The notes beneath the pieces were generated by a model, which was not told the origin of the DNA, did no database searches, and saw nothing but the letters and a program-made list of their open reading frames with translations. From Klebsiella phage phiKp_32, in sequence record LC768500.1: DNA of 64,000 bases; one strand, written 5' to 3'. Positions within the stretch are counted from its first letter, which is position 1. Every line of letters begins with the position of its first letter. Positions 1,068-30,668 of this stretch are shown here, in pieces. The position numbers were made by a program, and so were the translations under genes.

Positions 1068-1093
1068 CTCTATAGGGCTAGCAAAAGCTAGCC

Positions 1094-1119
1094 CTATATT
1101 ACTTTTATGAATACCCAAC
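1094..1119 (+). promoter_or_regulatory. copy 1 of the recurrent AT-rich promoter-like motif (CTATATTACTTTTATGAATACCCAAC)
   Basis: Matches the other copies at 5387, 14508 and 20686; lies about 17 nt upstream of ORF 1136; its 5' end overlaps the 3' arm of the terminator hairpin at 1069-1098. Confidence 0.5.
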
Positions 1120-1135
1120 TTTAGGAATCAAAATC

Positions 1136-1717
1136 ATGATGAATCAATTAAAGGATTGGATCGATTACTCTTCTTACTGGAATACGTATAACCGTGTCCT
1201 TCTTCGTAAGGGAGGGATGTACACCGAACAGATCGAACTGGAGCTCACCCCAATTAACGACGAGTGGGACGAAGTTAAACTCTGTAAAATCCGTAAGCAT
1301 CGTACGAGCATGGGACCGGGGGATAAAATTAGTCATCATCTCCATCCTGACATCTTTGCATTGATGGAAGAGAAGCTAGGGTATTATTTAGCCCATTTCA
1401 TCTTTCACTACGATATCTACACTAAGCTAACCAATTACGATGCGAGAAGATACTGGTACTTGCTCGATCGCTATGTCTTTAATGGTGGAGGTGGGATACC
1501 TCTGGTGCTGATAGACCCAAACTTTGATTTGCTGAGAGAGGATTGGGCTAAAGGCACTTCCTCGGCGTACACTGATGCAAAACAACGCATTATGGATAAA
1601 TTGAACATAGGTTTAGATCAGGTCAACGATCTGAAATTTCACGACATTTTAAGGCGTTTAGACGCCAACGATCATACGCCGTTTAGAACGGGTGTCATGA
1701 GTTGGGCGGGGGTTTAA
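1136..1717 (+). CDS. hypothetical protein
   Basis: 193-aa ORF preceded by ttaggaatcaaaatcATG. Confidence 0.55.
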   Translation: MMNQLKDWIDYSSYWNTYNRVLLRKGGMYTEQIELELTPINDEWDEVKLCKIRKHRTSMGPGDKISHHLHPDIFALMEEKLGYYLAHFIFHYDIYTKLTNYDARRYWYLLDRYVFNGGGGIPLVLIDPNFDLLREDWAKGTSSAYTDAKQRIMDKLNIGLDQVNDLKFHDILRRLDANDHTPFRTGVMSWAGV

Positions 1718-1720
1718 TAA

Positions 1721-1963
1721 ATGAATCTTTATTTAGTAGAAGATCGAGCTATAGATTATAACGATTACGACGCCTATGTCAGTGCGGTGGTCGCGGCAAG
1801 CTCCGAAGAAGAAGCGAGAGAAACCCGTCACGGCCATCCGGTTTTTAACCCAAATGTAAAAATCCACTGGGTGAGTGATAAAGAACAATTAGCCGTTCGT
1901 TTAATCGGAACCTGTATAGATGAACAGACCGGCGTTATCGACGCTGATTTTAATGCAGGTTGA
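1721..1963 (+). CDS. hypothetical protein
   Basis: 80-aa ORF tightly packed after the previous gene. Confidence 0.4.
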   Translation: MNLYLVEDRAIDYNDYDAYVSAVVAASSEEEARETRHGHPVFNPNVKIHWVSDKEQLAVRLIGTCIDEQTGVIDADFNAG

Positions 1964-2002
1964 TGTATTCACAGAAAATAAAATGTCGAATAGGAGTTGG
2001 TT

Positions 2003-2272
2003 ATGTCTAAAGTATCAGCCAGCCCAACAAAGAGTTTGGGGTTATTGGTTGAAATCAAATCATTAATCAATGATGAACCATGTGCATCCGCCGAAGTCAT
2101 TGAGACTGACCTGGGGTGGATTGTTGAGTTTAAAACCAAAGCCGGTGTGAAGGTACTTGCTTCTACAAGAAATCCGTATCACCCCAAACTTTACAATTCC
2201 CCCAATGCAGCTTTGAATACGATCAAGTCTCTGGGCCTAGCCGAGACTAAAGTATTTTTTCTTAAGTCTTAG
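2003..2272 (+). CDS. small protein, tandem paralog A
   Basis: aggag-N7-ATG start; shares an E..GW.VEFKT..G...S.N.Y.PK....+.FLK pattern with ORF 2303..2578. Confidence 0.55.
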   Translation: MSKVSASPTKSLGLLVEIKSLINDEPCASAEVIETDLGWIVEFKTKAGVKVLASTRNPYHPKLYNSPNAALNTIKSLGLAETKVFFLKS

Positions 2273-2302
2273 GATCCAGGCTAGGTTTATTAAGGAAAGC
2301 AA

Positions 2303-2578
2303 ATGGCAGATACGTCAGAAATCATTATCACCAGAACGTTCGCTCAGTTAAAAGAACTTCGGATAATGATCAGCCGTAAATTGGTTAAGTCGGCTTCTTT
2401 GGTTGAAACTACAGAGGGATGGTCAGTAGAGTTCAAAACTGAATACGGAGATAGGATATTCTCTTCGTCAAAGAATGCGTACTATCCAAAGACCTTTAAA
2501 GGATTTACAGCGCCCATCAAAATGCTGAGAAAGATGGGATTTGACGAAGTAAAGCTGGTATTTCTAAAAGCCAAATGA
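2303..2578 (+). CDS. small protein, tandem paralog B
   Basis: Same length (91 aa) and conserved block as 2003..2272. Confidence 0.55.
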   Translation: MADTSEIIITRTFAQLKELRIMISRKLVKSASLVETTEGWSVEFKTEYGDRIFSSSKNAYYPKTFKGFTAPIKMLRKMGFDEVKLVFLKAK

Positions 2579-2599
2579 TATTAATTTAGGAGAAATGAA

Positions 2600-2926
2600 A
2601 TGAAAGTAACAATCCAAGTGCTGGAAGACAGAGAAGTCGATATTATCGAGGCCTTAGAAAAAAGTTTGTTCGTCCCCCATTTCTATTTCGTGCATCGGGG
2701 GCGGGATAAAGGAGAATTCTTAGGGGAGGATGACGATTCTATTTTGATCATCTCACAGGAGTTGGTTGATTGTTGTCCTGAACTGGTCGTATTGGAATGC
2801 GGGGATTTGGAAAAACTATGTTTCTCCCAACGACGCACCAAAACCGAAAAAGAGGTTATTATCGAATACCTCAAAGCCAATCGAGAAAAGATTATCAAAG
2901 TCACTGACTTGCCGGGGTACTATTAA
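2600..2926 (+). CDS. hypothetical protein, first member of a second paralog pair
   Basis: Shares LGE(D/P)DD..L.IS and EE..+.Y+K...+KII.+ blocks with 2926..3300. Confidence 0.5.
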   Translation: MKVTIQVLEDREVDIIEALEKSLFVPHFYFVHRGRDKGEFLGEDDDSILIISQELVDCCPELVVLECGDLEKLCFSQRRTKTEKEVIIEYLKANREKIIKVTDLPGYY

Positions 2927-3300
2927 TGTTAAAAAATCGTCCTGGGGTAATCGTTACTCATACCGACGCATCTTCTGCTCACGGTTGGATCGATCTGCTG
3001 ATTCGTGATCTCGACGATAAGAACGTTGAGACGCGATTCTGTATCTGCACCCCAACAAACCACAAGTTGGTTCATTTACTGGGCGAACCAGATGACTGCG
3101 TGCTGGAAATCTCCCAATGGAAACGAGACTCCCCGTATAACGTGGGTTATTTAGGAGCGCCGGAAATAAAGGGGTGTGAGCTTTCCGACGAAGAACTTCG
3201 TTCGTATGTGAAAGAGCACTCGGATAAAATTATTGATATCAATCTCGCGCTGGTTTTAACAAATGGGGGTGATTATGACGGCTCGTTATTTTGCCGGTGA
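2926..3300 (+). CDS. hypothetical protein, second member of the second paralog pair
   Basis: ATGA overlap with the upstream gene; similar to 2600..2926. Confidence 0.5.
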   Translation: MLKNRPGVIVTHTDASSAHGWIDLLIRDLDDKNVETRFCICTPTNHKLVHLLGEPDDCVLEISQWKRDSPYNVGYLGAPEIKGCELSDEELRSYVKEHSDKIIDINLALVLTNGGDYDGSLFCR

Positions 3301-3808
3301 TCTGCACTTAGGTGATCCTTCGATCATCAAATACCGTAAGCAGTTTAAAACGGTAAAGGAGCACGATGAATTTATCGCCGATACGATTTTGGTTAAACCT
3401 CGTGATCACGACGTGCTAACCATCGTGGGTGACGGATTCATTAAACCCGAATCGCTGTTCATCCTGAAGAAATTCCCGTATAAGAAACATCTTATCCCAG
3501 GGAATCACTGTATGGAGAAAGGCGTTAAAGTTACTGATCTCGCTGCTTTCTTCGACGTTGTTACCGGATCGTTTAAATGGAAGAGTGGGTTCTTCGTATC
3601 CCATGAACCTCAGCATCCTAATCATCTCCGAGGCCGCATCAATATTCACGCTCATTTGCATGATAAAGTAATCGAAGACGAACGTTATATCGGAGTGTCA
3701 TTAGAACAAACCGGTTATCGTTTAATCCATCACGATGAGATCTTATCTGGTTCTTATCGTACTTATCGCAAACCAACTCTTGAAGACCATTTACATTTAG
3801 GAGAATAG
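3275..3808 (+). CDS. calcineurin-like metallophosphoesterase (Ser/Thr phosphatase fold)
   Basis: Motifs GDLHLGD (GDxHG), VGDGF, PGNHC (GNH[DE]-like) and HAHLH (GHxH) appear in the canonical order. Confidence 0.55.
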   Translation: MTARYFAGDLHLGDPSIIKYRKQFKTVKEHDEFIADTILVKPRDHDVLTIVGDGFIKPESLFILKKFPYKKHLIPGNHCMEKGVKVTDLAAFFDVVTGSFKWKSGFFVSHEPQHPNHLRGRINIHAHLHDKVIEDERYIGVSLEQTGYRLIHHDEILSGSYRTYRKPTLEDHLHLGE

Positions 3809-3810
3809 CC

Positions 3811-4101
3811 ATGGCTCGTAAACCTTCTACCGTAGGCGAGATTATTAAGAAAGAGTATCTCGAACCGATGAACATGAGTATGATGGAACTCTGCCGTCGG
3901 ACTCATTCAAGTAAGGGCGCTATTTTCCATCTGCTTAGCGGGAGCAATCGTCTGAGTATTGAGATGGCGTTTAAACTCGCTAAACTCTTCAACACAACTG
4001 AAGAGTTTTGGCTGAACCTTCAGCGGCAAGTAGATCTTTACGAAGCCAAACGGAATAAAGAACTTAAAGCGACCTTAAAGAAAATTACCCCCGTTGAGTA
4101 G
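3811..4101 (+). CDS. higA: HigA-like Xre-family HTH antitoxin
   Basis: GEIIKKEYLEPMNMS..ELCRRT..SKGAIFHLLSGSNRLSIEMAFKLAKLF..TEEFWLNLQ..VDLYEA aligns along its full length with E. coli HigA. Its start lies 2 nt after the stop of the phosphoesterase gene. Confidence 0.75.
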   Translation: MARKPSTVGEIIKKEYLEPMNMSMMELCRRTHSSKGAIFHLLSGSNRLSIEMAFKLAKLFNTTEEFWLNLQRQVDLYEAKRNKELKATLKKITPVE

Positions 4102-4128
4102 ACCGGGTAATAATTTATTTTTAGGAGA

Positions 4129-4671
4129 ATGATGATGATCAATTGTTTAGAACCCAACGAGTTCGCTCAGTTTAAAGCACAGTGGGATAAATATTTCGAG
4201 GAGGGTCTTCCCGGACTCGATGAAAGAATGAAGGGTCCGATGCTGATCCTGAACGCAATACCCGGGGTAGCGACCCGCTTTTGTTGTTCCGGTCATACCT
4301 TTGAAGAAAGGTTATCGTCCCACCCGACCAAAGCGTATTCTCGCGTACAGAAAAGGAACTTCATTTTTGTCGTTGAAGAAGGTCATGCTGATATTTTCTT
4401 TGCGTTTGAGATACTCTTCAAATTATTGAACAAAGACGAGTTTAGTTTTTGCCGGCCTTCTTTAGAAACCACTCTGCTCAAGAAAAACTTCGGTGAGTCG
4501 GAAACCTATCCGGTTTGGGTATTCGAAATGAATTGGGTTTACGAACTCACCGAGGAAGAAAAAATAAAGGGAAGGGATAAGACCCAGAACGAACTCTGGG
4601 AGAAACTCCTCAGAGGACTGTTCCTGATCACCGATCCTGAGACCCGTCATAAGCATCAGGAGTTACTCTAG
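4129..4671 (+). CDS. hypothetical protein
   Basis: 180-aa ORF preceded by tttttaggagaATG. Confidence 0.5.
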   Translation: MMMINCLEPNEFAQFKAQWDKYFEEGLPGLDERMKGPMLILNAIPGVATRFCCSGHTFEERLSSHPTKAYSRVQKRNFIFVVEEGHADIFFAFEILFKLLNKDEFSFCRPSLETTLLKKNFGESETYPVWVFEMNWVYELTEEEKIKGRDKTQNELWEKLLRGLFLITDPETRHKHQELL

Positions 4672-4806
4672 TCTCTTCGATATTTAGCAAAGCAACAGTT
4701 CTCTTGTTAAGATAAATAAATGATGTAATGGTATGGCCTGTCGGCCTAGGTGGGGGTAGCCTTGTGGATTACTCTCATTCCTCTCGTAAATGTTGGAGAA
4801 ATAAAA

Positions 4807-5322
4807 ATGGCTAAAGAAAACGTTGTTCGTATTCCACTGTATAATTTAGGTAATCTTTCCTGCGTAGGGTATCGAGAAGGGTGTGGGTATAACGTTAAGG
4901 TTTATTGGGGTGATTATCTGCTGGCCTCTAAACCTAATCTCACTCAAGCGCTCGACTTCGCTTATATCGGAGTTCGACTCTTCTCCCCGACCCACAGTGA
5001 ATGGTTAACCAACGATCTGCGCTTAACTATTTGTGAATCGTTGATAAAAGCCCGTTTATTAATTGACGGTAATCATAGCGTAGAGCGTTCTTCTGTTCTT
5101 TCGGAGGGTTTCCTTAAGCATTGGAAAACAGACGAATCCGGAGTAGACTATTATCTGGAAGTACGTCTTGCTAGAGATCCAGGTAAAATAGAAGACGACA
5201 TCGTTCAAGTCACCTTAAAGTACGACAACGACGGGTGTAGTCTCACTCATAGCTTCAAGAAATACGCTTCCGTTTTCAACTATAAAAAGCATTTAGGTCT
5301 TTTCAAACAAGTTACCTATTGA
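4807..5322 (+). CDS. hypothetical protein
   Basis: An internal ATG with ggagaaataaaaATG is a more plausible start than the annotated 4750; followed by the hairpin terminator. Confidence 0.5.
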   Translation: MAKENVVRIPLYNLGNLSCVGYREGCGYNVKVYWGDYLLASKPNLTQALDFAYIGVRLFSPTHSEWLTNDLRLTICESLIKARLLIDGNHSVERSSVLSEGFLKHWKTDESGVDYYLEVRLARDPGKIEDDIVQVTLKYDNDGCSLTHSFKKYASVFNYKKHLGLFKQVTY

Positions 5323-5331
5323 GCCAATCTA

Positions 5332-5360
5332 ACTCCTACTCCCTTATCGGGAGTAGGAGT
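5332..5360 (+). terminator. hairpin terminator ACTCCTACTCCCTTATCGGGAGTAGGAGT
   Basis: Perfect 12-bp stem; its exact reverse complement occurs at 30669-30697. Confidence 0.6.
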
Positions 5361-5386
5361 TATTGCACATGTAAATAAAAACAGAC

Positions 5387-5413
5387 CTGTATTATCTTTA
5401 TGTAGAACAATCC
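5387..5413 (+). promoter_or_regulatory. copy 2 of the promoter-like motif (CTGTATTATCTTTATGTAGAACAATCC)
   Basis: About 25 nt upstream of ORF 5438; aligns with the other three copies. Confidence 0.45.
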
Positions 5414-5437
5414 ATAACCTTTTTAGGAGCAAATAAC

Positions 5438-5740
5438 ATGAACGTCTATTTAGTTAAACCGATGGAATTTACTGGCGATGAAGATATCAACGGCATGGTG
5501 GTAGTGGCAGAAAACAGTGTTGCCGCGCTCCTCACCCATCCTCATGTGGACGAGGACGGGAATTCATTTGAATGGGTACGGGATACGGATTCAGAAAACG
5601 GGGCGTGGGTTGATGAAGAAGGTCGAACAGATATCTTCCATGGTTGTGGGTGGCCAGCACCACATCGGTTACACTGTGTTCTGTTGGGCGTAGCCGCTGA
5701 CGGGATGGAAGAAGGCATCGTGTTGGTCGATCGCGATTAA
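5438..5740 (+). CDS. hypothetical acidic protein
   Basis: 100-aa ORF preceded by tttttaggagcaaataacATG. Confidence 0.5.
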   Translation: MNVYLVKPMEFTGDEDINGMVVVAENSVAALLTHPHVDEDGNSFEWVRDTDSENGAWVDEEGRTDIFHGCGWPAPHRLHCVLLGVAADGMEEGIVLVDRD

Positions 5741-5750
5741 GGGGTAGAAT

Positions 5751-6272
5751 ATGAAAGTTGTTAGATTTGGTAATGTAACCGTCAATAAAGATAATAAACT
5801 GGAGATCGCCCGATTTAATTTCTCCAGTGCGTATGACGGCGAACCAGTCACCCCGGCAGGGATGATTAAAGCTATCGTAAACTGTCTTAATGATTACGTT
5901 GGTAAGACGGATGGGATGTTCAGCCCCGTTAAGGATCTAAGTGGCTCGCCACTTCTAATGGGGTCAAACATTCCAAAAGATCAGTCGGTGTTAATGATTC
6001 CCGACGGCACCCTGGCTTTAGCCGAACTGGATCCTCCTGTCTTTAGCACCAACGAATACACGTTCTTAGAAGTAGAAGAACGCGTTTATCAGCTCATAGC
6101 GATGCAAATAGGTATAACACTCACTACCGAAATGGGCGTCATTCCTGGGTCGGTTGAACTGATTGATGTGGATGACTCTCGTCCACATCCCGACAATGTC
6201 GTAGGTTACTGCCTGACATTAGAAAATCCACCGCGGTATTTCTTGAAAGTTAAGAATAAAGGAGTTCGGTAA
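5751..6272 (+). CDS. hypothetical protein
   Basis: 173-aa ORF. Confidence 0.5.
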   Translation: MKVVRFGNVTVNKDNKLEIARFNFSSAYDGEPVTPAGMIKAIVNCLNDYVGKTDGMFSPVKDLSGSPLLMGSNIPKDQSVLMIPDGTLALAELDPPVFSTNEYTFLEVEERVYQLIAMQIGITLTTEMGVIPGSVELIDVDDSRPHPDNVVGYCLTLENPPRYFLKVKNKGVR

Positions 6273-7057
6273 TGTTAGAGACCCAGCTTAAAGATCGCCT
6301 GACCATCCTGAACACTTTCGAATGGTTTACCTACTTCTGGAATAAATTCCAGGAAGGCATGTATGATGTAAGGCGAACCATGCATAGCGCGTCGGTTGCG
6401 ATTAATAACGGCGATTGTGCGGTAGCCGCTTTAGCGGTAAGTTCCGTTTTGAATCGTCGACTGGATGTTAACGTTGGAATGGCTCGCAATACTCTTCACG
6501 CCTGGGTCACTATCGGCAACGATATCTTTGATACCGAATTTCCAACGGGACACGATATAGCGAGTTTTAAATCTCGTTGGGGCGATCGTATCAGTGAGGT
6601 GGTTTTAACGCCTGAGACTCTCGTAGAAGAGTTTATGCCGTGCGATTTGGTAGGCGCCTATCTTGTAAAAGAATTTTGCGGGACAATGGGCGAGGTGCAT
6701 CCTAAAGAAATCGATTTTCTTCTGACCAACCCTACCGAATATGAATCTCAGGAAGGGATTAGTAAAATCGGAAAGGCTCTCGCATTTGCAGTAGAAGAAA
6801 CCCTGAAAGCCCGCAGGACAGTAACGACTATCAAACACGAGTCTTACTTCACTGCCAAAGAAGCCACGATGGATCATGAGCTCAAAGATCATGTCAGGGA
6901 TATCTATTCCGGTATTCTGATCTGCGTACTGGTGGATAAGAACGATCACAAAGTGATCGGAGAGTCTTATCACAAAGGACCAGAAACAGAACGCACGCTA
7001 CTGGCGAGATCCAGAGCTAAGTTTATTGCTCTGGATAAACTTAGAGACGTGGTGTGA
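6272..7057 (+). CDS. transglutaminase-like cysteine protease superfamily protein
   Basis: Cys/His/Asp triad context GDCAVAALAVSSVL ... HAWVTIGNDIFDTEF. Confidence 0.45.
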   Translation: MLETQLKDRLTILNTFEWFTYFWNKFQEGMYDVRRTMHSASVAINNGDCAVAALAVSSVLNRRLDVNVGMARNTLHAWVTIGNDIFDTEFPTGHDIASFKSRWGDRISEVVLTPETLVEEFMPCDLVGAYLVKEFCGTMGEVHPKEIDFLLTNPTEYESQEGISKIGKALAFAVEETLKARRTVTTIKHESYFTAKEATMDHELKDHVRDIYSGILICVLVDKNDHKVIGESYHKGPETERTLLARSRAKFIALDKLRDVV

Positions 7058-7082
7058 TCATTCAATTTTAGGAAACAAAATC

Positions 7083-8783
7083 ATGAACGAAGAAAGTAAA
7101 ATCGCGATCGTTTCTCATGGGGAGGTTGTTGAGTTTGATCCTAACAGTGCTGACCATCGAAAGATTCTTGAGTCGGCAAATAGGAAACTTATAACGAACG
7201 AACTCTACCAGCGAGATTTAAAACGCTTTAAAGAGCTGGTTTTGTTTTATCAAAGTGCGGTTAGCAAAGAAACCGTCGATGATAAAATTGAGGAGTTCTT
7301 AAGGGCTACCGGGATAAGGTTGGACTATTCTGATCTGGCCATTTTTAACTACGGGTACCCGGACATAGATGGATACTTCGAAGCCCTCTATAACCGCGCA
7401 ATGGGTATTGAGTCAGCTGATGAGAATCCGATTGTTGGACTGAAGGAGAAGAGCTTGGACCCTCAACATTCATCAACCAACGCTGGCGGTGGGTTATTAT
7501 ACGACATTCTGCTCCGTAAATTTAACCGTTTTATGCAGAACGTAACAGCTGACCTTTTATTATTAGTGGACGTAAAATCGTTAACAAGGCAATGCCGGAT
7601 TGAGACAAACATCCTCAGAAAAATAGAGGGGTTTAATAAAGAAACAAATCTGGAACTGGATCGCGTCGGCATAGGTCGCTCAATCGATGAAAATTCTCAA
7701 ACCGAGTATTTTAATGTTCTTTTCGTAGACCTAATTAAACGATCAGAAGAATTCAGAATACAGACGATCCCTCTTTCGGAGAAAATTCGGTTTTATCAAT
7801 CAGACTGTGGTGAAATCAGGATTGGTGGAAGTGATAAACCTTCAACCATAATCTTATCGTTACTGGTTACCGATAAGGAAGGACGAGTGTGTTCGCGGAA
7901 TACCGGGGAGTTATTGCCTGGTGACAAACCACTGTCATGTTTTATCTGTAACGACTCGGCGGATAAAAAGGAATCAAGAAATGAGCAACCTACTGGAAGA
8001 TTAAGAACGCCCTCGCGTTATTGGTACGATCGTTTCGGCCACCCTCATCTTTTAGAGTCTGGTAAGCCAATGCACGTAAACTTTATTAAATGCGAACCGG
8101 GGTACGGTAAATATTTGGATCTGTCAGTCAATAAGGGTCCGATACCCTCCCCCGATCCTCGCGATGAAAGCGTAAGGGGTAAAGATACCGTTATTCAAAA
8201 CGGCATTTCAATTACCACTGGGAAAGTCAACATGCATGCGCTTGAGGCGGCATGTCGGACAATGGCTGAAAATATGAAAGCCATGCACCGCAAGCCCGTC
8301 TCTGATGAATTTCGCGATAAACTTTACGAGGCGCTGGCCGCCTTTTATCATCGACATCACTCTCTAGGAAATGCTTCAAGAGAGTTCCTGTACGGGGATG
8401 TTATTTGCATCGAACGGTTTAAGCGCGAGTTTGGAATTGTTTTCTCCGATAAGGACGTGGACGCGTTTCTTAACGGAGTTATGCCTATTCCTGAGTTACT
8501 CAGCAAATACGTTAGAGAACTCCGTCCCGGTGAAAAGAAAATCACAACTTACTCACAATACGCTTTAGCTCTAAACACAATAACCTCGTTATTGTGTTTG
8601 TTTCCTTCAAACGTAAGGACGAGAGAAGATATTGAACGTGCTAAAGCATTACACGTTCAATTCAATATTCGTTTTGACATTGATATGTCCGAAGAGGATT
8701 TCTTAGCGATTATCTATCGTCATGGCGCCCCCCGCCATTTTCTCAAAAAACACGCTACCACTGAAGCCACTAAAGGTGAATAA
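7083..8783 (+). CDS. hypothetical large protein (566 aa)
   Basis: Start chosen at ttttaggaaacaaaatcATG; no motif recognised. Confidence 0.5.
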   Translation: MNEESKIAIVSHGEVVEFDPNSADHRKILESANRKLITNELYQRDLKRFKELVLFYQSAVSKETVDDKIEEFLRATGIRLDYSDLAIFNYGYPDIDGYFEALYNRAMGIESADENPIVGLKEKSLDPQHSSTNAGGGLLYDILLRKFNRFMQNVTADLLLLVDVKSLTRQCRIETNILRKIEGFNKETNLELDRVGIGRSIDENSQTEYFNVLFVDLIKRSEEFRIQTIPLSEKIRFYQSDCGEIRIGGSDKPSTIILSLLVTDKEGRVCSRNTGELLPGDKPLSCFICNDSADKKESRNEQPTGRLRTPSRYWYDRFGHPHLLESGKPMHVNFIKCEPGYGKYLDLSVNKGPIPSPDPRDESVRGKDTVIQNGISITTGKVNMHALEAACRTMAENMKAMHRKPVSDEFRDKLYEALAAFYHRHHSLGNASREFLYGDVICIERFKREFGIVFSDKDVDAFLNGVMPIPELLSKYVRELRPGEKKITTYSQYALALNTITSLLCLFPSNVRTREDIERAKALHVQFNIRFDIDMSEEDFLAIIYRHGAPRHFLKKHATTEATKGE

Positions 8784-8960
8784 ATGCAACCACTGATCAG
8801 TCTTAAAGAGTTAGCCAAACTTCTGGGTATTTCCGTTAAAACCCTGAAAATTCGTATTAGCAAAGGTACTGTTCCCCAGCCTTTCGTTAGCGAGGGGAAA
8901 AATATGCGTTGGATGCGTTCTGACGTTGAACATCTCTTCTCTAAAGAAGAAGTCGTTTAA
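8784..8960 (+). CDS. AlpA/Xis-like small HTH DNA-binding protein (58 aa), not in the ORF track
   Basis: MQPLISLKELAKLLGISVKTLKIRISKGTVPQPF...RWMRSDVEHLF matches the AlpA family pattern (L..E.A..LG+S..T+...I..G.FP.P......RW...D+..W). Confidence 0.5.
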   Translation: MQPLISLKELAKLLGISVKTLKIRISKGTVPQPFVSEGKNMRWMRSDVEHLFSKEEVV

Positions 8961-9033
8961 GTTGTAAATATTTACAGCCCTGTACTATTGTAATGGTCAA
9001 CCGACCGTAAACTTTAATTAAAGGAAAGAAATT

Positions 9034-9315
9034 ATGTCTAAAATCAAACTGACCGAAGAACAACTGGCCGCCCTGAATGGTTCGAAATCCTTCGTCGTTT
9101 CCGGCCTGGCTGCCGGCAAAGTCTCCCTCGCAACCGACGTGTCGGTCATCACCCTCGATCTCGATCCGGGTCAGCTGACCATCGGCCAAACCCTGAAGAT
9201 CAAATACGGCGCCCTCGTCACGGACAAAGCCCAGGAACAAAAGGCCGAAAAAGCCAAAGGTAAAAACAACCCGTCTCCGGAAATGGCGGCCAAACTTGCC
9301 GGCAGCGCCTGCTAA
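9034..9315 (+). CDS. hypothetical small protein with atypical GC-rich codon usage
   Basis: Strong bias toward ctg/gcc/ggc/acc codons compared with neighbouring genes; followed by the hairpin at 9326-9351. Confidence 0.5.
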   Translation: MSKIKLTEEQLAALNGSKSFVVSGLAAGKVSLATDVSVITLDLDPGQLTIGQTLKIKYGALVTDKAQEQKAEKAKGKNNPSPEMAAKLAGSAC

Positions 9316-9383
9316 GTTAAGGTAAAGTAGGAGGGGGTTTCCTCCTCCTACTCCCTCGTGTTTATTTTTTGGGAATTTAGTCG

Positions 9384-10356: not shown

Positions 10357-10380
10357 CCTCACTAATTTAGGGCTACGATT

Positions 10381-11124: not shown

Positions 11125-11136
11125 GGGTGATTAAAC

Positions 11137-11811: not shown

Positions 11812-11928
11812 AAACGTAGAGGGGTTAACGCCCCTCTCTTATTTTGTCTTTTTAGGAATTAACATCATGAGCGATAGGTACGAATGGAGTGACGTCTATA
11901 ACAAACTTCAGAAACTGGGGAAAGTATA

Positions 11929-12366: not shown

Positions 12367-12390
12367 TAACCATTTGTTTTAGGATATTCC

Positions 12391-13458: not shown

Positions 13459-13485
13459 CCCCAATTGATTTTAGGAACAGCATCC

Positions 13486-14040
13486 ATGATTTTACAATCA
13501 GTCACCGTCGGTGGGAAGAGAACCTCGATAGAAATAGAAGAAGGTCTAGTCAACGTTTGGTTATTAGCTAAACACGACGTCTTCTTACAAAACCTGGAGC
13601 CTAAGGTTTGCCATGCGTTGATTAAAGAACATATCGAACGCAATATTACCCGTCGACCCGACATTCCTTTAACAGCCCAAGTACGCGAGCTGATGTACCG
13701 TGATATTACCATTAAGCTCAACGGTAAACCAAACTCGGTCATTCCCGTAATTAAAGTAAGACCGAGTAAAACCAGAAACCAGCTGAACCGAATCGTCAAA
13801 GAGTACTTCACGGTAAACAGCATGGAGTTCGATAAGAAACTCACTGTTGGGGAAATGCGTAAATTGGAGAAATACCTCCTTTCATTTTACAAAGAACCCG
13901 TGCAGATTCACAAGAAAGAATTCCCTAATGGGGTTTATAAACTCATCGGCGTGGAATACGAAAATGAGCGGTTTGAAATAACCTTCTCTGACGATTTCTT
14001 CTTCGCTTTATATAAGGGTCCAGAATACCATGTTCAATAA
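13486..14040 (+). CDS. hypothetical protein
   Basis: Start at aggaacagcatccATG. Confidence 0.45.
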   Translation: MILQSVTVGGKRTSIEIEEGLVNVWLLAKHDVFLQNLEPKVCHALIKEHIERNITRRPDIPLTAQVRELMYRDITIKLNGKPNSVIPVIKVRPSKTRNQLNRIVKEYFTVNSMEFDKKLTVGEMRKLEKYLLSFYKEPVQIHKKEFPNGVYKLIGVEYENERFEITFSDDFFFALYKGPEYHVQ

Positions 14041-14449
14041 TGTCATTTTATTTGTCTATGACGACAGTGAGCTCGCTACCCAGTACACCGTGGCTAATAA
14101 AGCTGGAACAAGAAGATTAACAACCCCGGGTCACAGTGTTCTCTTATCTGACGTCAAAGACAGGGTGGGGAAAAGCAGTTTCCATAACAGCATTGTGGTA
14201 TTTGTACGAGGAGGGGCTTTCTTTGTTTTCATGTGCGGGTCCGTTCTATACGGATTGGTGGGTGATCTCGATCACCTTCTGGATCACTTGTTGAAGATCA
14301 GGGACGAACTCAATACTCGGGCAGACATACGCAATCGGACAATACTGCATATCTCCGAGGCAGGATTCGGGCGGTACGACATCATTCCGACCATCGATCC
14401 CGTCGCGCACAAGGCATTGGCTGATTACCAAAATAATAAATTATTCTAA
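14030..14449 (+). CDS. hypothetical protein
   Basis: 139-aa ORF followed by a strong hairpin and T-run. Confidence 0.45.
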   Translation: MFNNVILFVYDDSELATQYTVANKAGTRRLTTPGHSVLLSDVKDRVGKSSFHNSIVVFVRGGAFFVFMCGSVLYGLVGDLDHLLDHLLKIRDELNTRADIRNRTILHISEAGFGRYDIIPTIDPVAHKALADYQNNKLF

Positions 14450-14451
14450 CC

Positions 14452-14479
14452 GTTACTGGAGTGGGGGATCCCCCACTCC
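14452..14479 (+). terminator. rho-independent terminator (ACTGGAGTGGGGGATCCCCCACTCCAGT followed by T8)
   Basis: Perfect stem followed by a poly-T tract. Confidence 0.7.
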
Positions 14480-14507
14480 AGTAAGTTTTTTTTATATTAT
14501 TTTAAAA

Positions 14508-14533
14508 CTATATTACCTAAACGTATAGACAAC
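14508..14533 (+). promoter_or_regulatory. copy 3 of the promoter-like motif (CTATATTACCTAAACGTATAGACAAC)
   Basis: About 27 nt upstream of ORF 14560, immediately after the terminator. Confidence 0.5.
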
Positions 14534-14559
14534 TTCTTTTATTTAACTGGAGTAGTAAA

Positions 14560-14808
14560 ATGATTTATTTCGATTTAGATTTTTTACTCGGGTCAAAAAT
14601 CACGAAAGAAGAATTTAAGGAGCTATTTCCGGATGCAGATCCGGACCATCTATCCTGTTCCTCTACCGAGGAGGAAATTGATTTCGAAAATGCTTTTTGT
14701 GCGGAAGATCCTTATGATTCGGAAATCCTTCACCGATCCGTACCCATAATCGAAGGATCAAAATCAGATTTAATTTCGTCATACAAATTAGCGGAGGATG
14801 AGATATGA
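14560..14808 (+). CDS. small acidic protein (82 aa)
   Basis: ATGA overlap with the downstream nucleotidyltransferase gene. Confidence 0.45.
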   Translation: MIYFDLDFLLGSKITKEEFKELFPDADPDHLSCSSTEEEIDFENAFCAEDPYDSEILHRSVPIIEGSKSDLISSYKLAEDEI

Positions 14809-15797
14809 TTATTGCTTTAAAAACGTTTGTTGGCAGTAAACTGTTTGGATTAGAAACAGAGAATTCGGATACGGATATAAAGGGAATTTATATTCCTTCT
14901 GCTAAGGATATTCTTCTGCATCGTTATTACCCTGTGATCGATAAATCTTCTAATAAGGGGACTTATCGAGCCAACAAGCCGGAAGATACAGATGAAGTCT
15001 ATTTCTCTTTGGACAAATTTATCGATCTTCTCATAAAAGCCGATACAACGGCTTTCGATATGCTGCACGCACCAGAAAGCAAAATCCTCATCTCCACTGA
15101 CATTCATCACGAGCTTTGGAGAAACCGGTCCAAATTTTACACCAGCCGATTGGATGGTCTGTTCGGCCAGGTTATTACCGAAGCGAATACTTACGGTGTT
15201 CGGAGTATGCGAGCTGCCGTTTTAAAAGAGGTCGTTGAAATCGTTTCTTCGTGGGATGATTTTAAATTGTCGGGCTGCAGATTGGGTGGACTAATTTCTC
15301 AGCTCCCAGTAGATAACGTGTACACGCGTATAACGCGGGATGAGACACAGAGGGCCGGCTGTCAGGATTTCTATGAAATTCTAGATCGTAAATTTCAGTA
15401 CACCATCTCGGCTTTGAAATTCAAAACCGCTATTCTGGAATTATGGTCTTCCTACGGAGAAAGGGTTAAGAAGGTGGAGTTATCTGGGGGTAATGATTGG
15501 AAGGCGTTAAGCCATGCTTTCAGAATCGGATATCAGCTGTTAGATATCTATCGAGAGGGCGATTACACCTTCCCTTTAAAGCAAAGCTCTACGATTATGA
15601 AAATTAAACTCGGGGAGGTTTCAGAAGAAGAATCAAGAGAAATGCTGAATCAACTCATTTCCGATGTTAAAACTGCAGCAGGTAAATCCGGACTTCCTAC
15701 TGAAATCGATCCAGAGCCATGGTACGATTGGGTTGCGGACGTTTACGCCGGAGTGGTAAAGAAAGCTTATTTACCTAAAGGATTCAGACTATCCTGA
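14805..15797 (+). CDS. Pol-beta superfamily nucleotidyltransferase, substrate unknown
   Basis: N-terminal GS-x9-D-x-D signature FVGSKLFGLETENSDTDIKGIY, with a third acidic cluster DTDEVYFSLD about 55 aa downstream. Confidence 0.55.
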   Translation: MIIALKTFVGSKLFGLETENSDTDIKGIYIPSAKDILLHRYYPVIDKSSNKGTYRANKPEDTDEVYFSLDKFIDLLIKADTTAFDMLHAPESKILISTDIHHELWRNRSKFYTSRLDGLFGQVITEANTYGVRSMRAAVLKEVVEIVSSWDDFKLSGCRLGGLISQLPVDNVYTRITRDETQRAGCQDFYEILDRKFQYTISALKFKTAILELWSSYGERVKKVELSGGNDWKALSHAFRIGYQLLDIYREGDYTFPLKQSSTIMKIKLGEVSEEESREMLNQLISDVKTAAGKSGLPTEIDPEPWYDWVADVYAGVVKKAYLPKGFRLS

Positions 15798-15872
15798 CAT
15801 CAGCGATGTTTTTAGGAAACTGTTTTTCTGTAGGTGATTTATTCCCTCTTCCTCTTAATCAGGATCTTTAAA

Positions 15873-16139
15873 ATGAAATATTTCTTAGGGTTGTTAGTTT
15901 TGTGTTGCGGTTTGTCTTATGCAAAAAACACTACGGTAAACGGGAGTTGTGTTGCGATGGATCATTACGAAAAGACGGTCTATCAGTGCAGCGATGGAAC
16001 GGTAACCGTCATGGACCACGACAACGCGACCATTTGTCGTCCCAATGATTCTGCTGTAACTGGTGGCGCACAACGCTGCTACCGGGTGGATTTAAAAACT
16101 GGGGAAGCGCATGAAATAGAAAAAGGGGTTAAGAAATGA
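15873..16139 (+). CDS. secreted Cys-rich small protein
   Basis: N-terminal signal peptide MKYFLGLLVLCCGLSYA; 6 Cys in the mature part. Confidence 0.45.
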   Translation: MKYFLGLLVLCCGLSYAKNTTVNGSCVAMDHYEKTVYQCSDGTVTVMDHDNATICRPNDSAVTGGAQRCYRVDLKTGEAHEIEKGVKK

Positions 16140-16348
16140 CCGATTTCTTTTTCGCTCCGGTTTCTAAGGGATGGTTTATCGTTCAGGTCATGTGCACGGT
16201 TTACGTTTTGCTAAAATGCGTAACGTCCTATATCGAATACTGCAAGAACCCGAATAAAACTGATCTGATCATTTATTGGATTCAGGCGGGACTCGGGATA
16301 ATTGTGACAACAAAAACGATTTGTTTCTTGGCGGCTGGGAGTTTCTAA
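16136..16348 (+). CDS. small membrane protein
   Basis: Two hydrophobic helices. Confidence 0.4.
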   Translation: MTDFFFAPVSKGWFIVQVMCTVYVLLKCVTSYIEYCKNPNKTDLIIYWIQAGLGIIVTTKTICFLAAGSF

Positions 16349-16424
16349 ATGAAAAGCGTTCCCAATCGACCAGGGATAAACTCAGACGCTTGAAAATCCA
16401 CAGTGCCCTGGAGGTTCCTTTGGT

Positions 16425-16763
16425 ATGGAACATGAATTAAAAATAGCTTTAGCAAGTTACGGAAGATTAACTATATTAAACCCACTCAGGGGGATCATAG
16501 GCCATTTTGTCCCAAGATTAATAGTAGAGTGGTCAGTAGAAGAAAGAACGCTCAGATTCCGTCCTAGCGGCACTGAGGGGAATAAGTATTATAAAGGGTT
16601 TATTAAGTTAAGTCCTACCGCATGTGTCCATTTAATAGCGCCTATTCTTAGAAAAGCAGAATACGGTAAAAAGATGGATAATCCAGATATCGTTGAAGTT
16701 CTTGGACATACTGTTACCATCAAAGTCAAAGAACAAGACGGCTGGTATTGCGCACAATTTTAA
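16425..16763 (+). CDS. hypothetical protein
   Basis: 112-aa ORF. Confidence 0.4.
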   Translation: MEHELKIALASYGRLTILNPLRGIIGHFVPRLIVEWSVEERTLRFRPSGTEGNKYYKGFIKLSPTACVHLIAPILRKAEYGKKMDNPDIVEVLGHTVTIKVKEQDGWYCAQF

Positions 16764-16791
16764 CTCGAGTATCAATTTAGGAAAAAATATC

Positions 16792-17241
16792 ATGCAATTA
16801 GATAACATTTGGTTTTTCGGTATAGACGCAGAAGATCTAGAAAATTTTAAAGCGATCTTTACCGTAGAAGGGTTAAAGGAACCCTTTGATTTTAATTTCA
16901 TTCCCTTCACCATTTCGCCTCAGTCGATGGTCGCTCACACTAAAGAACTGACGATCACGCTTTACCCCGTTAAAGAGAAAATTTTATTAAACGGTAAAGT
17001 AGAACAAACGATCTTTAAAGGTTCCGACGGAAGGTTGTATTTTAACCTGGGTTCGATTATCCAGGTGATGAATAGCCAAATAGCCGCCTTTGTAGCCAAA
17101 TCCTTTTCTGGGTTTAATAAACTAGGCTGGTTTATTAAAGAGATCGACGGAAGTTTTATCCTATTCAACGTCCAGAGCTTCAGTGACGAGGGGTTGATTA
17201 AACTGTATCGATCCTCTAGCGTAACCGATAGCTCTAATTAA
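16792..17241 (+). CDS. hypothetical protein
   Basis: Start at ttaggaaaaaatatcATG (internal to the annotated 16693 ORF). Confidence 0.45.
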   Translation: MQLDNIWFFGIDAEDLENFKAIFTVEGLKEPFDFNFIPFTISPQSMVAHTKELTITLYPVKEKILLNGKVEQTIFKGSDGRLYFNLGSIIQVMNSQIAAFVAKSFSGFNKLGWFIKEIDGSFILFNVQSFSDEGLIKLYRSSSVTDSSN

Positions 17242-17250
17242 GGAAACCCT

Positions 17251-17442
17251 ATGGTAATCTCAAACGCTGTTATCGTGTTGGTGGTTTGGCTCACCGTTAT
17301 CCCTCTCCTAATCTGGGAGACGCGTAACGACGGTTACAAGCCGTTGAAGCGCTATATCTTCATCGTCATATGGCCTATCTCTGCGGTAGGGATATTTTTA
17401 CATATCGTCTGGCAACTCCTGAAATATAAAGGATGGAAATAA
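17251..17442 (+). CDS. small membrane protein
   Basis: Two TM helices. Confidence 0.4.
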   Translation: MVISNAVIVLVVWLTVIPLLIWETRNDGYKPLKRYIFIVIWPISAVGIFLHIVWQLLKYKGWK

Positions 17443-17789
17443 TGGGAATATTCTACACCGGATTAATCCTTATTGCCGGCCTTTTATTCGGGGTGGGATA
17501 CTTGCTCTTTAAAAAGAGAAAAGACCCGCAGCTGGTATACTGGGACGACTGGATAAAACTTCATTGGAAGAAGTTTTTAATTGTCTTAATGATCTCGCTG
17601 GGTGCTTATACTCTAATTTGTATCAAGCCCCTTTACCACACAACCAAATGTTATTTCTACGGTAAAACGTATAAGACATACACCGAATACAGTTGGATTA
17701 TTGGTGAGTGTTTGTATAAAGGTAAGACTGGGGCAATGTTGCCTTTGCAGATCACTCGGGATAATCCAGACGGAGACGTCGAGGAGTAG
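17433..17789 (+). CDS. membrane protein
   Basis: Two TM helices plus a Cys/Tyr-rich tail. Confidence 0.4.
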   Translation: MEIMGIFYTGLILIAGLLFGVGYLLFKKRKDPQLVYWDDWIKLHWKKFLIVLMISLGAYTLICIKPLYHTTKCYFYGKTYKTYTEYSWIIGECLYKGKTGAMLPLQITRDNPDGDVEE

Positions 17790-17792
17790 AAC

Positions 17793-18230
17793 ATGATTTG
17801 GGTAAAACAAGCCTGTTCGTTATGGTACGAAAAAAGAACATTGAAAGACTGGGGTGAGATCCTCACTTTTATTAGTATGTTCTGTCTGATTGTAACACTA
17901 TGTGCAAGTTTTGCAACTAGTTCTGTTCTTTGGCTAACATTGTGCGCGATCAATATAGTGCTGATGATTTCTTTAGGGCCTTTGTTCGACTGGTTACACA
18001 AAAACAAATCCACGATCGTAATGAGGGTAGAGCGCGAAAGGATGTTAAAAGATCCTTTCGATAGCATGATCCACGCTTATCTGGAAACAGACGGCTCTGA
18101 TATTGAAGAACTGTTGGACGTACTGCGAATGGACTCGTTTACGTTACACAATCAAATTAAAAACACGGAGCTTAAAAGTAGGGTGTCTGACGCTATCGCC
18201 AAGATGCAGCGAAAACAAAGCTCAAATTAA
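17793..18230 (+). CDS. membrane protein
   Basis: Two to three TM helices. Confidence 0.4.
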   Translation: MIWVKQACSLWYEKRTLKDWGEILTFISMFCLIVTLCASFATSSVLWLTLCAINIVLMISLGPLFDWLHKNKSTIVMRVERERMLKDPFDSMIHAYLETDGSDIEELLDVLRMDSFTLHNQIKNTELKSRVSDAIAKMQRKQSSN

Positions 18231-18242
18231 TTAGGAAAACAA

Positions 18243-19106
18243 ATGAAAACAGCAGAACAACAGTATTTGGATTTAGGGTCTCGCATTGTCGAAGAAGGTG
18301 TGTGGGTAGAAAACAAACGAACCGGCGTTCGTTGCCTAACTGTGGCCAATGAAACTCTTCATTACGACGTGGAAAATGGTTCAACTCCTGTTCTCTCCAC
18401 TCGCCCCGTCCCTTATAAAGGAGGGTTAGGGGAATTCATCGCTTACCTGCAAGGGAAAGGGAACGCTGCTGAATTCCGCGAACTGGGCTCCAACACCTGG
18501 AACTCCAATGCCAACGAGAACGAAACCTGGTTGAAAAATCCTAACCGTAAAGGCGAGGATGACATGGGTCGAGTCTATGGCGTTCAAGGTCGAGATTGGA
18601 CTAACCAATTCGGTGCTAAGTTAGACCAGCTGAAGAAAATCATCGACAATCTTAATCGAGGTATTGATGATCGCGGAGAGATTCTGACTTTCTGGAATCC
18701 CGGGGAATTTGAATATGGGTGTTTGCGTCCTTGTATGCACACGCACCAGTTTACCTTACTCGGTAATAAACTCCACCTCACCTCGGTGCAAAGAAGCTTC
18801 GATTGGGCGTTAGGCGGACCGGCAAATATGCTTCAATGTTATTTCTTCTTACAGCTGATGGCTCAGGTCACGGGACATATCGCCGGTCAGGTCACTCATC
18901 ACGTGGTCAACGCGCATATCTACGAGAACCAGCTGGAGTTGGCTAAAGAGCAACTCAAAAGAACTCCTCACCGAACAGATACTCAGTTCTGGGTTAATCC
19001 AAATATCCGCACCCTGGAAGATATCGATAAGATGACTAAGCACGACGTCAAACTTATCGGTTACTTCAGCGACTACGACCCGATCAAATATCCGTTTACG
19101 GTGTAA
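18243..19106 (+). CDS. thyA: thymidylate synthase
   Basis: Active-site region LRPCMHTHQFTLLGNKLHLTSVQRSFDWALGGPANMLQCYFFLQLMAQ aligns with ThyA [40 protein letters not shown]. Confidence 0.9.
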   Translation: MKTAEQQYLDLGSRIVEEGVWVENKRTGVRCLTVANETLHYDVENGSTPVLSTRPVPYKGGLGEFIAYLQGKGNAAEFRELGSNTWNSNANENETWLKNPNRKGEDDMGRVYGVQGRDWTNQFGAKLDQLKKIIDNLNRGIDDRGEILTFWNPGEFEYGCLRPCMHTHQFTLLGNKLHLTSVQRSFDWALGGPANMLQCYFFLQLMAQVTGHIAGQVTHHVVNAHIYENQLELAKEQLKRTPHRTDTQFWVNPNIRTLEDIDKMTKHDVKLIGYFSDYDPIKYPFTV

Positions 19107-19128
19107 CTCGCAATAAAACAAAAACTTT

Positions 19129-19158
19129 ATCCTACCTGGGAATCCCAGGTAGGATAAA
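19129..19158 (+). terminator. hairpin terminator TTATCCTACCTGGGAATCCCAGGTAGGATAA followed by a T-run
   Basis: Member of the CCTAC...GTAGG hairpin family. Confidence 0.6.
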
Positions 19159-19247
19159 TAAAGTTTATCTTTTTTGGATGACGTTGCCCTCGGCTTTACG
19201 TTTGGTAAAATGAGAGGATCCGCAGAGTCGGACGAAAGGAAATCACT

Positions 19248-20243
19248 ATGAATAGTGTGGAAACGATTTTTAACCATTTAGAATTAAAAACATACCGATC
19301 GTTGTCTTATAACGATAGTGTTAAAATGCTTTACGAAAGATTAAAAGAAAAGGTAAAGGAAGACCCTACATTTGAACTATGGGTTCCCCTTAAATTAAGA
19401 AGTCACAGGTGGTCCCAACAAGAATACGCCAAGTCCGAGTTCATCCAAACCGATTTTGTTCTAGTGAGCAACTTAGGTGGGATCTATCGAAAAGAAGGCC
19501 CCCATAAAGGAATTCGACCCCTTAATCATCAGTTACGGGGGTATAGTTCAAGATCTTTTAAAATTGAAAATATAGTGGTCCATAGTGTCTTACACAGGAT
19601 AGTCGCATCGTGCTTCGTCCCGGTTCCGGATGAATTGTTACATGTGGACTCTGACGATCTACAAGTTAATCATAAAAATGGAATTAAATCACAGAGTGAT
19701 TTTTTAAATTTGGAATGGTGTACGCATTCACAAAACATCAAACACGCCGCCGATACCGGACTTAGACATTATAGGCGAGGTTTTGAAAATAAAAACTGCA
19801 AACCTGTTCTGGGAACTGTGGTCATAGAAGGAAAATATAAAGGCTTTAAATTTATAGTCGCCGGATCTTCTGAAATGAAAGAGATGTTGGGTTCTCAAGA
19901 TTCAACAACTCACATTTATGCGGTGCTTAAAGGCACCAGGAAAGAATGTAAAGGGTGTAGTTGGAGATATGCGACATTAGAAGATATCCAAGAATTATCC
20001 GGAGTCGTCCCCCCAAGTGAACTAATCGAATTAATAAAGGAGTACAATCCGATTAAAAAGGGGATCTTTATAGGTTCAAAGGAGGGACACCCCGACTTAA
20101 TATTTAAAACTTATAAAGAAGCGGAAGAACAGGGGTTTTCACCAAAGACTATAAATAAGTGTATCGGCGGTAAACTTAAAACCTATCGTGGGTACGCCTT
20201 CCGCATTAGATCTCTCGACGATTCAAAAACACTCACTTCATGA
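19248..20243 (+). CDS. HNH homing endonuclease (free-standing)
   Basis: HRIVASCFVP...LQVNHKNGIKSQSDFLNLEWCTHSQNIKHA HNH motif; paralogous to 26260, 30733, 47006 and 62360. Confidence 0.8.
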   Translation: MNSVETIFNHLELKTYRSLSYNDSVKMLYERLKEKVKEDPTFELWVPLKLRSHRWSQQEYAKSEFIQTDFVLVSNLGGIYRKEGPHKGIRPLNHQLRGYSSRSFKIENIVVHSVLHRIVASCFVPVPDELLHVDSDDLQVNHKNGIKSQSDFLNLEWCTHSQNIKHAADTGLRHYRRGFENKNCKPVLGTVVIEGKYKGFKFIVAGSSEMKEMLGSQDSTTHIYAVLKGTRKECKGCSWRYATLEDIQELSGVVPPSELIELIKEYNPIKKGIFIGSKEGHPDLIFKTYKEAEEQGFSPKTINKCIGGKLKTYRGYAFRIRSLDDSKTLTS

Positions 20244-20610
20244 TCACATTCCCGACCGCTCTTTTTCTTGTAAAATGAGGTTCGCCAAATAGGCGAACCG
20301 CCCAATAAATTACAAGCCAGTAGCGCCAGCTGAGTTTTAAACGATAACGCATATTGTCTCGGAAGAGATTGTCACACTCTTTCCTTTCGTATAACCCCGA
20401 ACCATACATGTAATCGTGCACAGCTGCAGCCGGGAAATATTTATAGTAAGCTGGGTATAAACCCTGTAGCCAACGAGGAACACTCGCCCCGTCCGTTACC
20501 AAGCCTTTAGGGACAGTGACTTCTGGGGTCGGGTAATCTTCTCTGAACCGAAATTTATCTTCAGCTATAACGTAGTCAAGCGGGATGTCGGTAAAACTAA
20601 ATTCTTCCAT
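20233..20610 (-). CDS. DUF1353-family protein
   Basis: PKGLVTDGASVPRWLQGLY...AAAVHDYMY is typical of DUF1353. Confidence 0.55.
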   Translation of the reverse strand: MEEFSFTDIPLDYVIAEDKFRFREDYPTPEVTVPKGLVTDGASVPRWLQGLYPAYYKYFPAAAVHDYMYGSGLYERKECDNLFRDNMRYRLKLSWRYWLVIYWAVRLFGEPHFTRKRAVGNVIMK

Positions 20611-20685
20611 TTCGCTATTCTCTGAATTAGTTAGTAATAAACGATCATAGCATTTTAGACTTTCGACACATAGAAGTTTTCAGTT

Positions 20686-20712
20686 CTATATTACCTTTAT
20701 GTAAACACAACC
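20686..20712 (+). promoter_or_regulatory. copy 4 of the promoter-like motif (CTATATTACCTTTATGTAAACACAACC)
   Basis: In a divergent intergenic region, about 20 nt upstream of ORF 20733. Confidence 0.5.
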
Positions 20713-22635: not shown

Positions 22636-22723
22636 CTTCCATAATTTTTTAAATCGATATTATTTAAGTGTCTCAAACAAAAACTTTTTAGGTTGTTTTA
22701 ACATCACTTAGGAGTACGCCCGT

Positions 22724-24159: not shown

Positions 24160-24249
24160 AACCAAGATTCCTATTATACGTTAAAGAATTTTGGATCTAT
24201 ATCACCGTCTTGATGCACTAACCATAATCTTTTTAGGAGTATTAACATC

Positions 24250-30663: not shown

Positions 30664-30668
30664 TAATA

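Follow-up and report, generated by a model that had tools for sequence, protein, structure and literature searches.

The 64,000 nt stretch of Klebsiella phage phiKp_32 analysed here (LC768500.1; hereafter 'the window') harbours an AT-rich motif that recurs upstream of a number of its genes. A preliminary description of this DNA listed four copies of the motif as 26-mers, and all four are present where reported, on the + strand and within intergenic gaps (Table 1); they end 16, 25, 26 and 21 nt before the following start codon, roughly the 20-30 nt originally given. The searches described below extend the set to nine sites, downstream of which are found small genes of unknown function and three recognisable products: a LysM/transglycosylase-like protein (GTG 20733), a helix-turn-helix (HTH) DNA-binding protein (22724-23098) and a GroEL-like chaperonin (GTG 24250). 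The phage itself is a Miamivirus-like jumbo phage of the Chimalliviridae: over its first 19 kb, the window shares 92-94% identity with Klebsiella phages Miami, KPN8 and YC1, and identities in the same range are found with Raoultella phage VB_ZK_P1 and 'Stenotrophomonas' phage BUCTxx100. The last of these (OR529409.1) was deposited as infecting Stenotrophomonas maltophilia, an unexpected host for a phage with ~92% DNA identity to the Miami-like phages of Klebsiella and Raoultella. Miamivirus is a genus of this family of nucleus-forming, phiKZ-like phages, and Miami has served as a relative of Erwinia phage RAY that encodes chimallin. From sequence comparison, the motif sites are very probably the early promoters of this nucleus-forming phage.

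The repeated motif is real and non-random. The degenerate 16-mer CTRTATTAYYTWWAYG has four matches in the window against an expectation of 0.09, a number reached by none of 100 shuffled sequences. Shorter and longer queries were less informative: the 8-mer TATATTAC by itself is not significant in the window (three matches against 2.35 expected), and the exact 26-mers, searched with up to three mismatches, recovered solely themselves, the four copies differing pairwise at more than 3/26 positions. A matrix built from the four 26-mers was dropped, as it incorporated idiosyncratic 3' bases common to the four; its next best match was at 37741 (score 15.4), 8980 and 24197 scored merely 8-9, and it gave no further convincing site. 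Position 37741 received no support from the family matrix introduced below and was rejected, as was the loose pattern RTATTAY-N4-RYG, which produced two intragenic chance matches at 40572 (+) and 9784 (-).

This family matrix was obtained by iterative search of the complete KPN8 genome, seeded with five loose matches, and converged on 26 + strand sites. Applied to the window, it identifies nine sites, all on the + strand, the next score being 4.0. As a guard against circularity, an independent matrix was constructed using only those 17 KPN8 sites that fall beyond the part of the genome homologous to the window; this returned the same nine sites, all +, with scores of 14-37 and next best values of 6.3 (+) and 6.2 (-), while a first-order Markov null gives 0.11 matches above 14 per window over both strands. 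The four original copies are thus a subset of the nine, having CTATATTAC in common. What had been considered a weaker fifth candidate near 22655 is in fact a strong member of the family (candidate promoter 6), and four further members (candidates 3, 7, 8 and 9) had been overlooked. The original motif boundaries also need to be moved: the 3' half (..ACACAAC) is weakly conserved, and ~22 nt 5' of the core belong to the motif.

Table 1. Motif copies, candidate promoters, hairpins and RNA polymerase (RNAP) genes in the window. The predicted start is the G six bases after the core; scores are those of the family matrix / 17-site matrix.
Feature	Position	Strand	Sequence or core	Predicted start	Leader	Scores	Remarks
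26-mer copy 1	1094	+	CTATATTACTTTTATGAATACCCAAC				
26-mer copy 2	5387	+	CTGTATTATCTTTATGTAGAACAATC				
26-mer copy 3	14508	+	CTATATTACCTAAACGTATAGACAAC				
26-mer copy 4	20686	+	CTATATTACCTTTATGTAAACACAAC				
Candidate promoter 1	1074..1115	+	core ATATTAC 1096-1102	G 1109	27 nt to ATG 1136	14.5 / 15.3	
Candidate promoter 2	5367..5408	+	core GTATTAT 5389-5395	G 5402	36 nt to ATG 5438	35.4 / 32.9	
Candidate promoter 3	8960..9001	+	core GTACTAT 8982-8988	G 8995	39 nt to ATG 9034	26.7 / 19.4	
Candidate promoter 4	14488..14529	+	core ATATTAC 14510-14516	G 14523	37 nt to ATG 14560	34.8 / 30.2	
Candidate promoter 5	20666..20707	+	core ATATTAC 20688-20694	G 20701	32 nt to GTG 20733	39.2 / 37.5	
Candidate promoter 6	22635..22676	+	core ATATTAT 22657-22663	G 22670	54 nt to ATG 22724	36.4 / 33.9	
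Candidate promoter 7	24177..24218	+	core ATATCAC 24199-24205	G 24212	38 nt to GTG 24250	24.7 / 14.2	weaker match
Candidate promoter 8	27815..27856	+	core ACATTAT 27837-27843	G 27850	44 nt to ATG 27894	39.4 / 35.3	
Candidate promoter 9	44667..44708	+	core ACATTAT 44689-44695	44702 (A, not G)	43 nt to ATG 44745	23.1 / 15.2	weaker match
Perfect 14-bp hairpin	5330..5362	+	TAACTCCTACTCCC-ttatc-GGGAGTAGGAGTTA				would end preceding transcription unit; few nt 5' of candidate promoter 2
Intrinsic-terminator-like hairpin	14453..14484	+					14 pairs and T-run; just 5' of candidate promoter 4
Two virion-type multisubunit RNAP subunit genes (gp180-, gp178-like)	57166..64000	+					by homology to phiKZ

In full, the motif extends over ~42 nt and reads acaYgtAaAtttTTTnAGayCT-ATATTAY-C-N4-TG-taaa. 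If the first base of ATATTAY is numbered 0, the 26 KPN8 sites show no variation at A(-16), C(-2), A(+2) or A(+5), and G(+13), six bases after the core element and a sequence correlate of the start, is found at 23/26 KPN8 sites and 8/9 window sites. If this G is taken as the start (+1), the upstream part consists of YGTA, with its invariant A at -29, a T-tract from -26 to -21 and AG at -19/-18; nearer the predicted start are the invariant C at -15, the -10-like ATATTAY (-13 to -7) and, separated from it by a free spacer, T-1 and G+1. In the window, the predicted leaders are 27-54 nt long. At 27828-27893, the start of the longest open reading frame (ORF) overlaps the promoter sequence, and 27894, which has a Shine-Dalgarno sequence 3' of the predicted start, is likelier to be the true initiation codon; the annotated starts at KPN8 68098-68163 and 150012-150077 likewise overlap a promoter sequence. 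The leaders (e.g. 5418-5440, 24229-24252 and 27872-27896) have in common a recurrent translation-initiation region, cTTTTTAGGAg-N-tAACATC-ATG/GTG, which is also present in KPN8.

Alignment of the orthologous sites in the window and in Miami, KPN8, VB_ZK_P1 and BUCTxx100 gives a phylogenetic footprint. No variation among these five genomes is seen at A(-16), at C(-2) and T(-1), at positions +2 to +5 of the core or at T(+12), and the spacer from +7 to +11 differs in 36% of site-columns compared with 6% for the core. Candidate promoter 3 is kept in all four relatives. At candidate promoter 6 the spacer is different in every relative, with the core and TG fixed, and VB_ZK_P1 satisfies the motif despite having a different upstream sequence; similarly, the sequence upstream of candidate promoter 5 is unrelated in VB_ZK_P1, yet the motif is there (score 24.2). 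Candidate promoter 4 is shared with Miami and KPN8 and absent from VB_ZK_P1 and BUCTxx100, whose upstream region differs, so that there is promoter turnover. Beyond these phages, an exact 18-base block of the motif was found in 66 stretches of IMG/VR, 38 of them on contigs >200 kb, and A(-16), which the search left unconstrained, is present in 60 of the 66.

The window also encodes the type of polymerase that such promoters would need. Over its full length, the product of 57166-58608 has 34% identity to phiKZ gp180 (E 2e-91), and a gp178-like gene begins at 59156 (phrog_3148). Divergent from these two RNAP subunit genes is a gp181-like tail lysin of 2268 aa (50339-57145, -), giving the order gp181 / gp180 / gp178 seen in phiKZ, whose annotation lists both RNAP subunits among the head proteins. 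No relative of solved structure was found for the window subunits at E 1e-3, and they are assigned to the virion RNAP set because of the gp180 identity and this synteny. The phage therefore encodes a virion-type multisubunit RNAP, which is presumed to be the trans-acting reader of the motif.

Both subunit genes are interrupted relative to KPN8. A 1.4 kb insertion within the gp178-like gene (62302-63736) matches the Rfam group I intron model (51.9 bits, above the gathering score), with its core at 63354-63690 and an ORF at 62360-63412 for a 350 aa HNH/NUMOD1 homing-endonuclease-like protein. The second insertion, ~397 nt long and without an ORF (58606-59002), is near the 3' end of the gp180-like gene, the reading frame of which resumes at about 59003-59159; a full-length group I intron match covers 58613-58943, its 37.5 bits being below the gathering score (E 5e-8 in a local search). 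At 26146-27228, between the post-GroEL gene and thymidine kinase, is an ORF for a free-standing HNH endonuclease (Pfam HNH_3); the KPN8 annotation includes it as KPN8_192, and that of Miami has no gene at this point.

A genome-wide search of the kind proposed in the preliminary description is provided by the KPN8 matrix scan, the matches of which are concentrated 5' of genes and on the coding strand. All 26 have + orientation, the one - strand match being the palindromic shadow of 224316. Most are intergenic and 30-100 nt 5' of a same-strand start codon, with predicted leaders mostly of 32-65 nt; the coding density of Miami is 94%. Hallmark early genes are among those preceded by a site: that for the nuclear shell protein, KPN8_265, the PhuZ gene KPN8_256 and KPN8_280, a match to the phiKZ non-virion RNAP subunit gp71 (7OGP_C, E 1e-47) and also to the AR9 non-virion RNAP. 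The shell protein was identified by profile search (phrog_4795, E 2e-100), as BLASTP of KPN8_265 against phiKZ gp54 was nearly blank (E 0.015). Within 45-64 kb of the window, no motif precedes the genes for the virion RNAP, the lysin or structural proteins, and the best score there is <=6.3. Taking gene timing from phiKZ orthology, this distribution is the one expected of early promoters.

The resemblance of the core to the phiKZ early-promoter consensus, originally put forward with some doubt, is borne out: TATATTAC is the phiKZ promoter of PMC7058600 Table 2. In phiKZ itself it can be read directly 5' of genes including gp54, which encodes the nuclear shell, and the intergenic, promoter-like copies in 100 kb of that genome (about ten) are all on the + strand. 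Further copies look like chance occurrences: 212568 (-, in gp203 coordinates), 226486 (within a + strand gene) and 206349 (abutting a hairpin). The best phiKZ copies, one of them before gp54, read aaaaTTTnAGATcTATATTACnnnnnTG. When phiKZ is searched with the KPN8 matrix, four promoter-like sites rank top, two of which have TATATTAC (before gp54 and gp36), the other two being TATATCAT.

The proposal that these are early promoters for the virion RNAP is therefore supported by homology, with a motif of the phiKZ family, an encoded virion-type RNAP and an early-type distribution. Such a system would operate through a sigma-less multisubunit virion RNAP that is packaged in the capsid and enters the cell with the DNA, where it would at once start transcription at the motif sites, with no need for host RNAP or for new protein synthesis. 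The element recognised would be ~42 nt long, and the transcripts would have leaders of 27-54 nt and continue into short operons made up of small early genes; hairpins bound several of these operons. In phiKZ and AR9, early transcription is independent of host RNAP, being rifampicin-resistant, and of new protein synthesis (PMC7598289, PMC5312081), and in phiKZ it is the virion enzyme that transcribes the non-virion RNAP genes (PMC7598289). It is from homology to these phages that the exact start, the early timing and the identity of the enzyme are proposed here.

A number of observations weigh against this interpretation. Sites 1096, 24199 and 44689 score 14-15 with the 17-site matrix, and the maximum over 100 nulls was 18.7; they are individually marginal, each resting on its position and conservation. 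Some KPN8 matches have predicted leaders of 7-10 nt or no obvious ORF (99937, 118004), from which it follows that the list holds some false positives or meets annotation errors. In the literature searched, neither mapped transcript 5' ends nor data on timing or rifampicin were present for this phage and its close relatives. Finally, TATTAT in the core matches five of the six bases of the sigma-70 -10 hexamer, TATAAT, and at site 20688 the motif coincides with a sigma-70-like pair (TCGACA-18-TATATT). Combined with an A/T tract 5' of the core that resembles an UP element, these features could indicate strong host sigma-70 promoters in a T4-style early strategy, in which TATTAT would be the -10 box and the AT-rich tract an UP-like sequence. 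This is nevertheless improbable. There is no TTGACA-like -35 hexamer at the sites, where the conserved upstream bases are instead YGTA and AGAYCT, and the core is directly preceded by an invariant C-T rather than the TG of an extended -10. Of the eight sites in the scanned 1-40 kb, a single one coincides with a sigma-70-like pair (TTGACA-like -35, 16-18 bp, TATAAT-like -10), and such pairs fall below shuffle expectation (32 against 38.9 and 31 against 38.8) rather than being enriched, in keeping with the earlier remark that the motif is unlike a sigma70 -35/-10 pair. The same block also precedes phiKZ early genes at TATATTAC sites, and phiKZ infects independently of the host enzyme.

Promoters of the non-virion RNAP (a middle class), or promoters used by both phage polymerases, could also be envisaged, as AR9 and phiR1-37 have 'continuously expressed' genes (PMC7598289, PMC5312081) and the polymerase acting at the present sites is proposed from homology. 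However, the motif matches the early class and differs from phiKZ middle promoters, which have TACT at about -22 after an A-rich repeat, from the phiKZ late TATG at the start (PMC7598289) and from the AR9 late motif AACA-N6-TA/G (PMC5312081). It also precedes the gene for a non-virion RNAP subunit, and this RNAP has to be made before it can transcribe that gene. Overall, this alternative is unlikely to account for the sites. The possibility of an operator for a phage DNA-binding protein (e.g. the HTH protein of 22724-23098), or of an RNA-level leader signal, would suit a long motif (~42 nt) just 5' of genes, with an HTH gene 3' of one copy, but is highly implausible given the lack of dyad symmetry, the position of the most conserved part 5' of the predicted start and hence outside the RNA, an architecture like that of start-mapped AR9 promoters and a core like the published phiKZ early consensus.

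The early promoters proposed here are in several cases accompanied by hairpins, which precede three of the four original copies as first reported, at 1071-1098, 5330-5362 and 14453-14484. The second of these has a weak T-run, was missed by a terminator scan and ends 26 nt before the core of candidate promoter 2. The first, of terminator type, overlaps the motif and occupies the upstream half of candidate promoter 1. In this hairpin the 3' arm supplies the AG..CT bases in every relative compared, and ATATTAC is fixed in all four relatives while the arms vary, with changes in both. Conceivably, though on balance doubtful, the promoter is modular, such that its downstream half (AG..CT-ATATTAY-N6-G) would be enough for the sigma-less virion RNAP and site 1096 would represent a fused terminator-promoter unit. 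If so, the variant series formed by nine sites in five genomes and the 66 metagenomic stretches could define the recognition code of the virion RNAP, or could instead point to a packaged specificity factor. As a separate observation, the same 13-14 bp stem (AACTCCTACTCCC / GGGAGTAGGAGTT) occurs at 5330-5362 and 30664-30702, both of them transcription-unit boundaries; the loop at 5330-5362 is inverted between relatives (ttatc vs gataa), and a 35 nt stretch of the repeated hairpin has 100% identity with Vibrio phage phiKT1019.

In the literature searched, promoters of Miami-like phages were not found to be described, the Miami genome announcement being silent on them. The sites would furnish a usable early-promoter model for the Miamivirus-like jumbo phages of Klebsiella and Raoultella, which are candidates for therapy: the model predicts nine transcription units and their start sites in the window, would correct several start codons (e.g. 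27894, KPN8_63 and KPN8_194) and marks genes whose expression probably takes place inside the early infection vesicle. It would also add a well-conserved and naturally varied promoter set to the question of how sigma-less virion RNAPs find promoters. The current picture of phiKZ-like transcription is unchanged; phiKZ-type early promoters are already well known.

Comparison with characterised promoter families places the motif most closely with those of other jumbo phages. The sigma-70 -10 element (TATAAT at -12 to -7) is similar in position and AT-rich, whereas the phage enzymes have no sigma homologue, and the motif has no -35 hexamer and has other invariant bases. Coliphage N4 similarly relies on an injected polymerase reading a small set of early promoters. 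The N4 virion RNAP is a T7-like polymerase of one subunit and reads a hairpin in the DNA, by contrast with the present motif, of which a hairpin is not part. The early promoters of AR9, AAATATATATTAT-(6N)-G+1 (PMC5312081), are transcribed without new protein synthesis and share an AT-rich, -10-like element ending in ATATTAT, followed by six bases and a G, which in AR9 is the mapped start; starts 6 nt 3' of the element are also stated for phiKZ and phiR1-37 (PMC5312081). Unlike the present phage, AR9 is a uracil-DNA phage of Bacillus without a nucleus, and the upstream part of its promoters is a plain A/T run.

The extended consensi of 201phi2-1, OBP and N1M2 (PMC7058600 Table 2) align position by position with the present motif and have the same layout, including an A 16 nt 5' of ATATTAT. 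The predicted early promoters of OBP (Pseudomonas) and N1M2 (Klebsiella aerogenes; 31 copies, PMC7058600) read TBYAWWWWWTTTCARRYAKATATTATYWAAGTGWA, and so share the A 16 nt before the core, W5, TTTYARR, ATATTAT, four or five free bases and GTG; site 22657 (TTTTAAATCGATATTATTTAAGTG) fits this consensus almost perfectly. These promoters, which are bioinformatic predictions, differ in having A-K where C-T precedes the core here. With phiKZ itself, the block TTTnAGAyCTATATTAC-N5-TG is held in common at sites having TATATTAC, as are an A/T-rich upstream tract, an intergenic position on the strand of the genes and a location 5' of the nuclear shell gene in both phages. The core here tolerates ATATTAT, ACATTAT and GTATTAT, unlike that of phiKZ, and YGTA, with its invariant A 16 nt before the core, and a T-tract are found where phiKZ has an A-tract. 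The number of early promoters per genome is similar (~28-32 in phiKZ, according to the literature, and ~26 in KPN8), and typical phiKZ leaders are reported as 31-40 nt. According to PMC7598289, all jumbo phages that encode an RNAP can be found to have a motif of this kind, which has been confirmed as the early promoter wherever tested.

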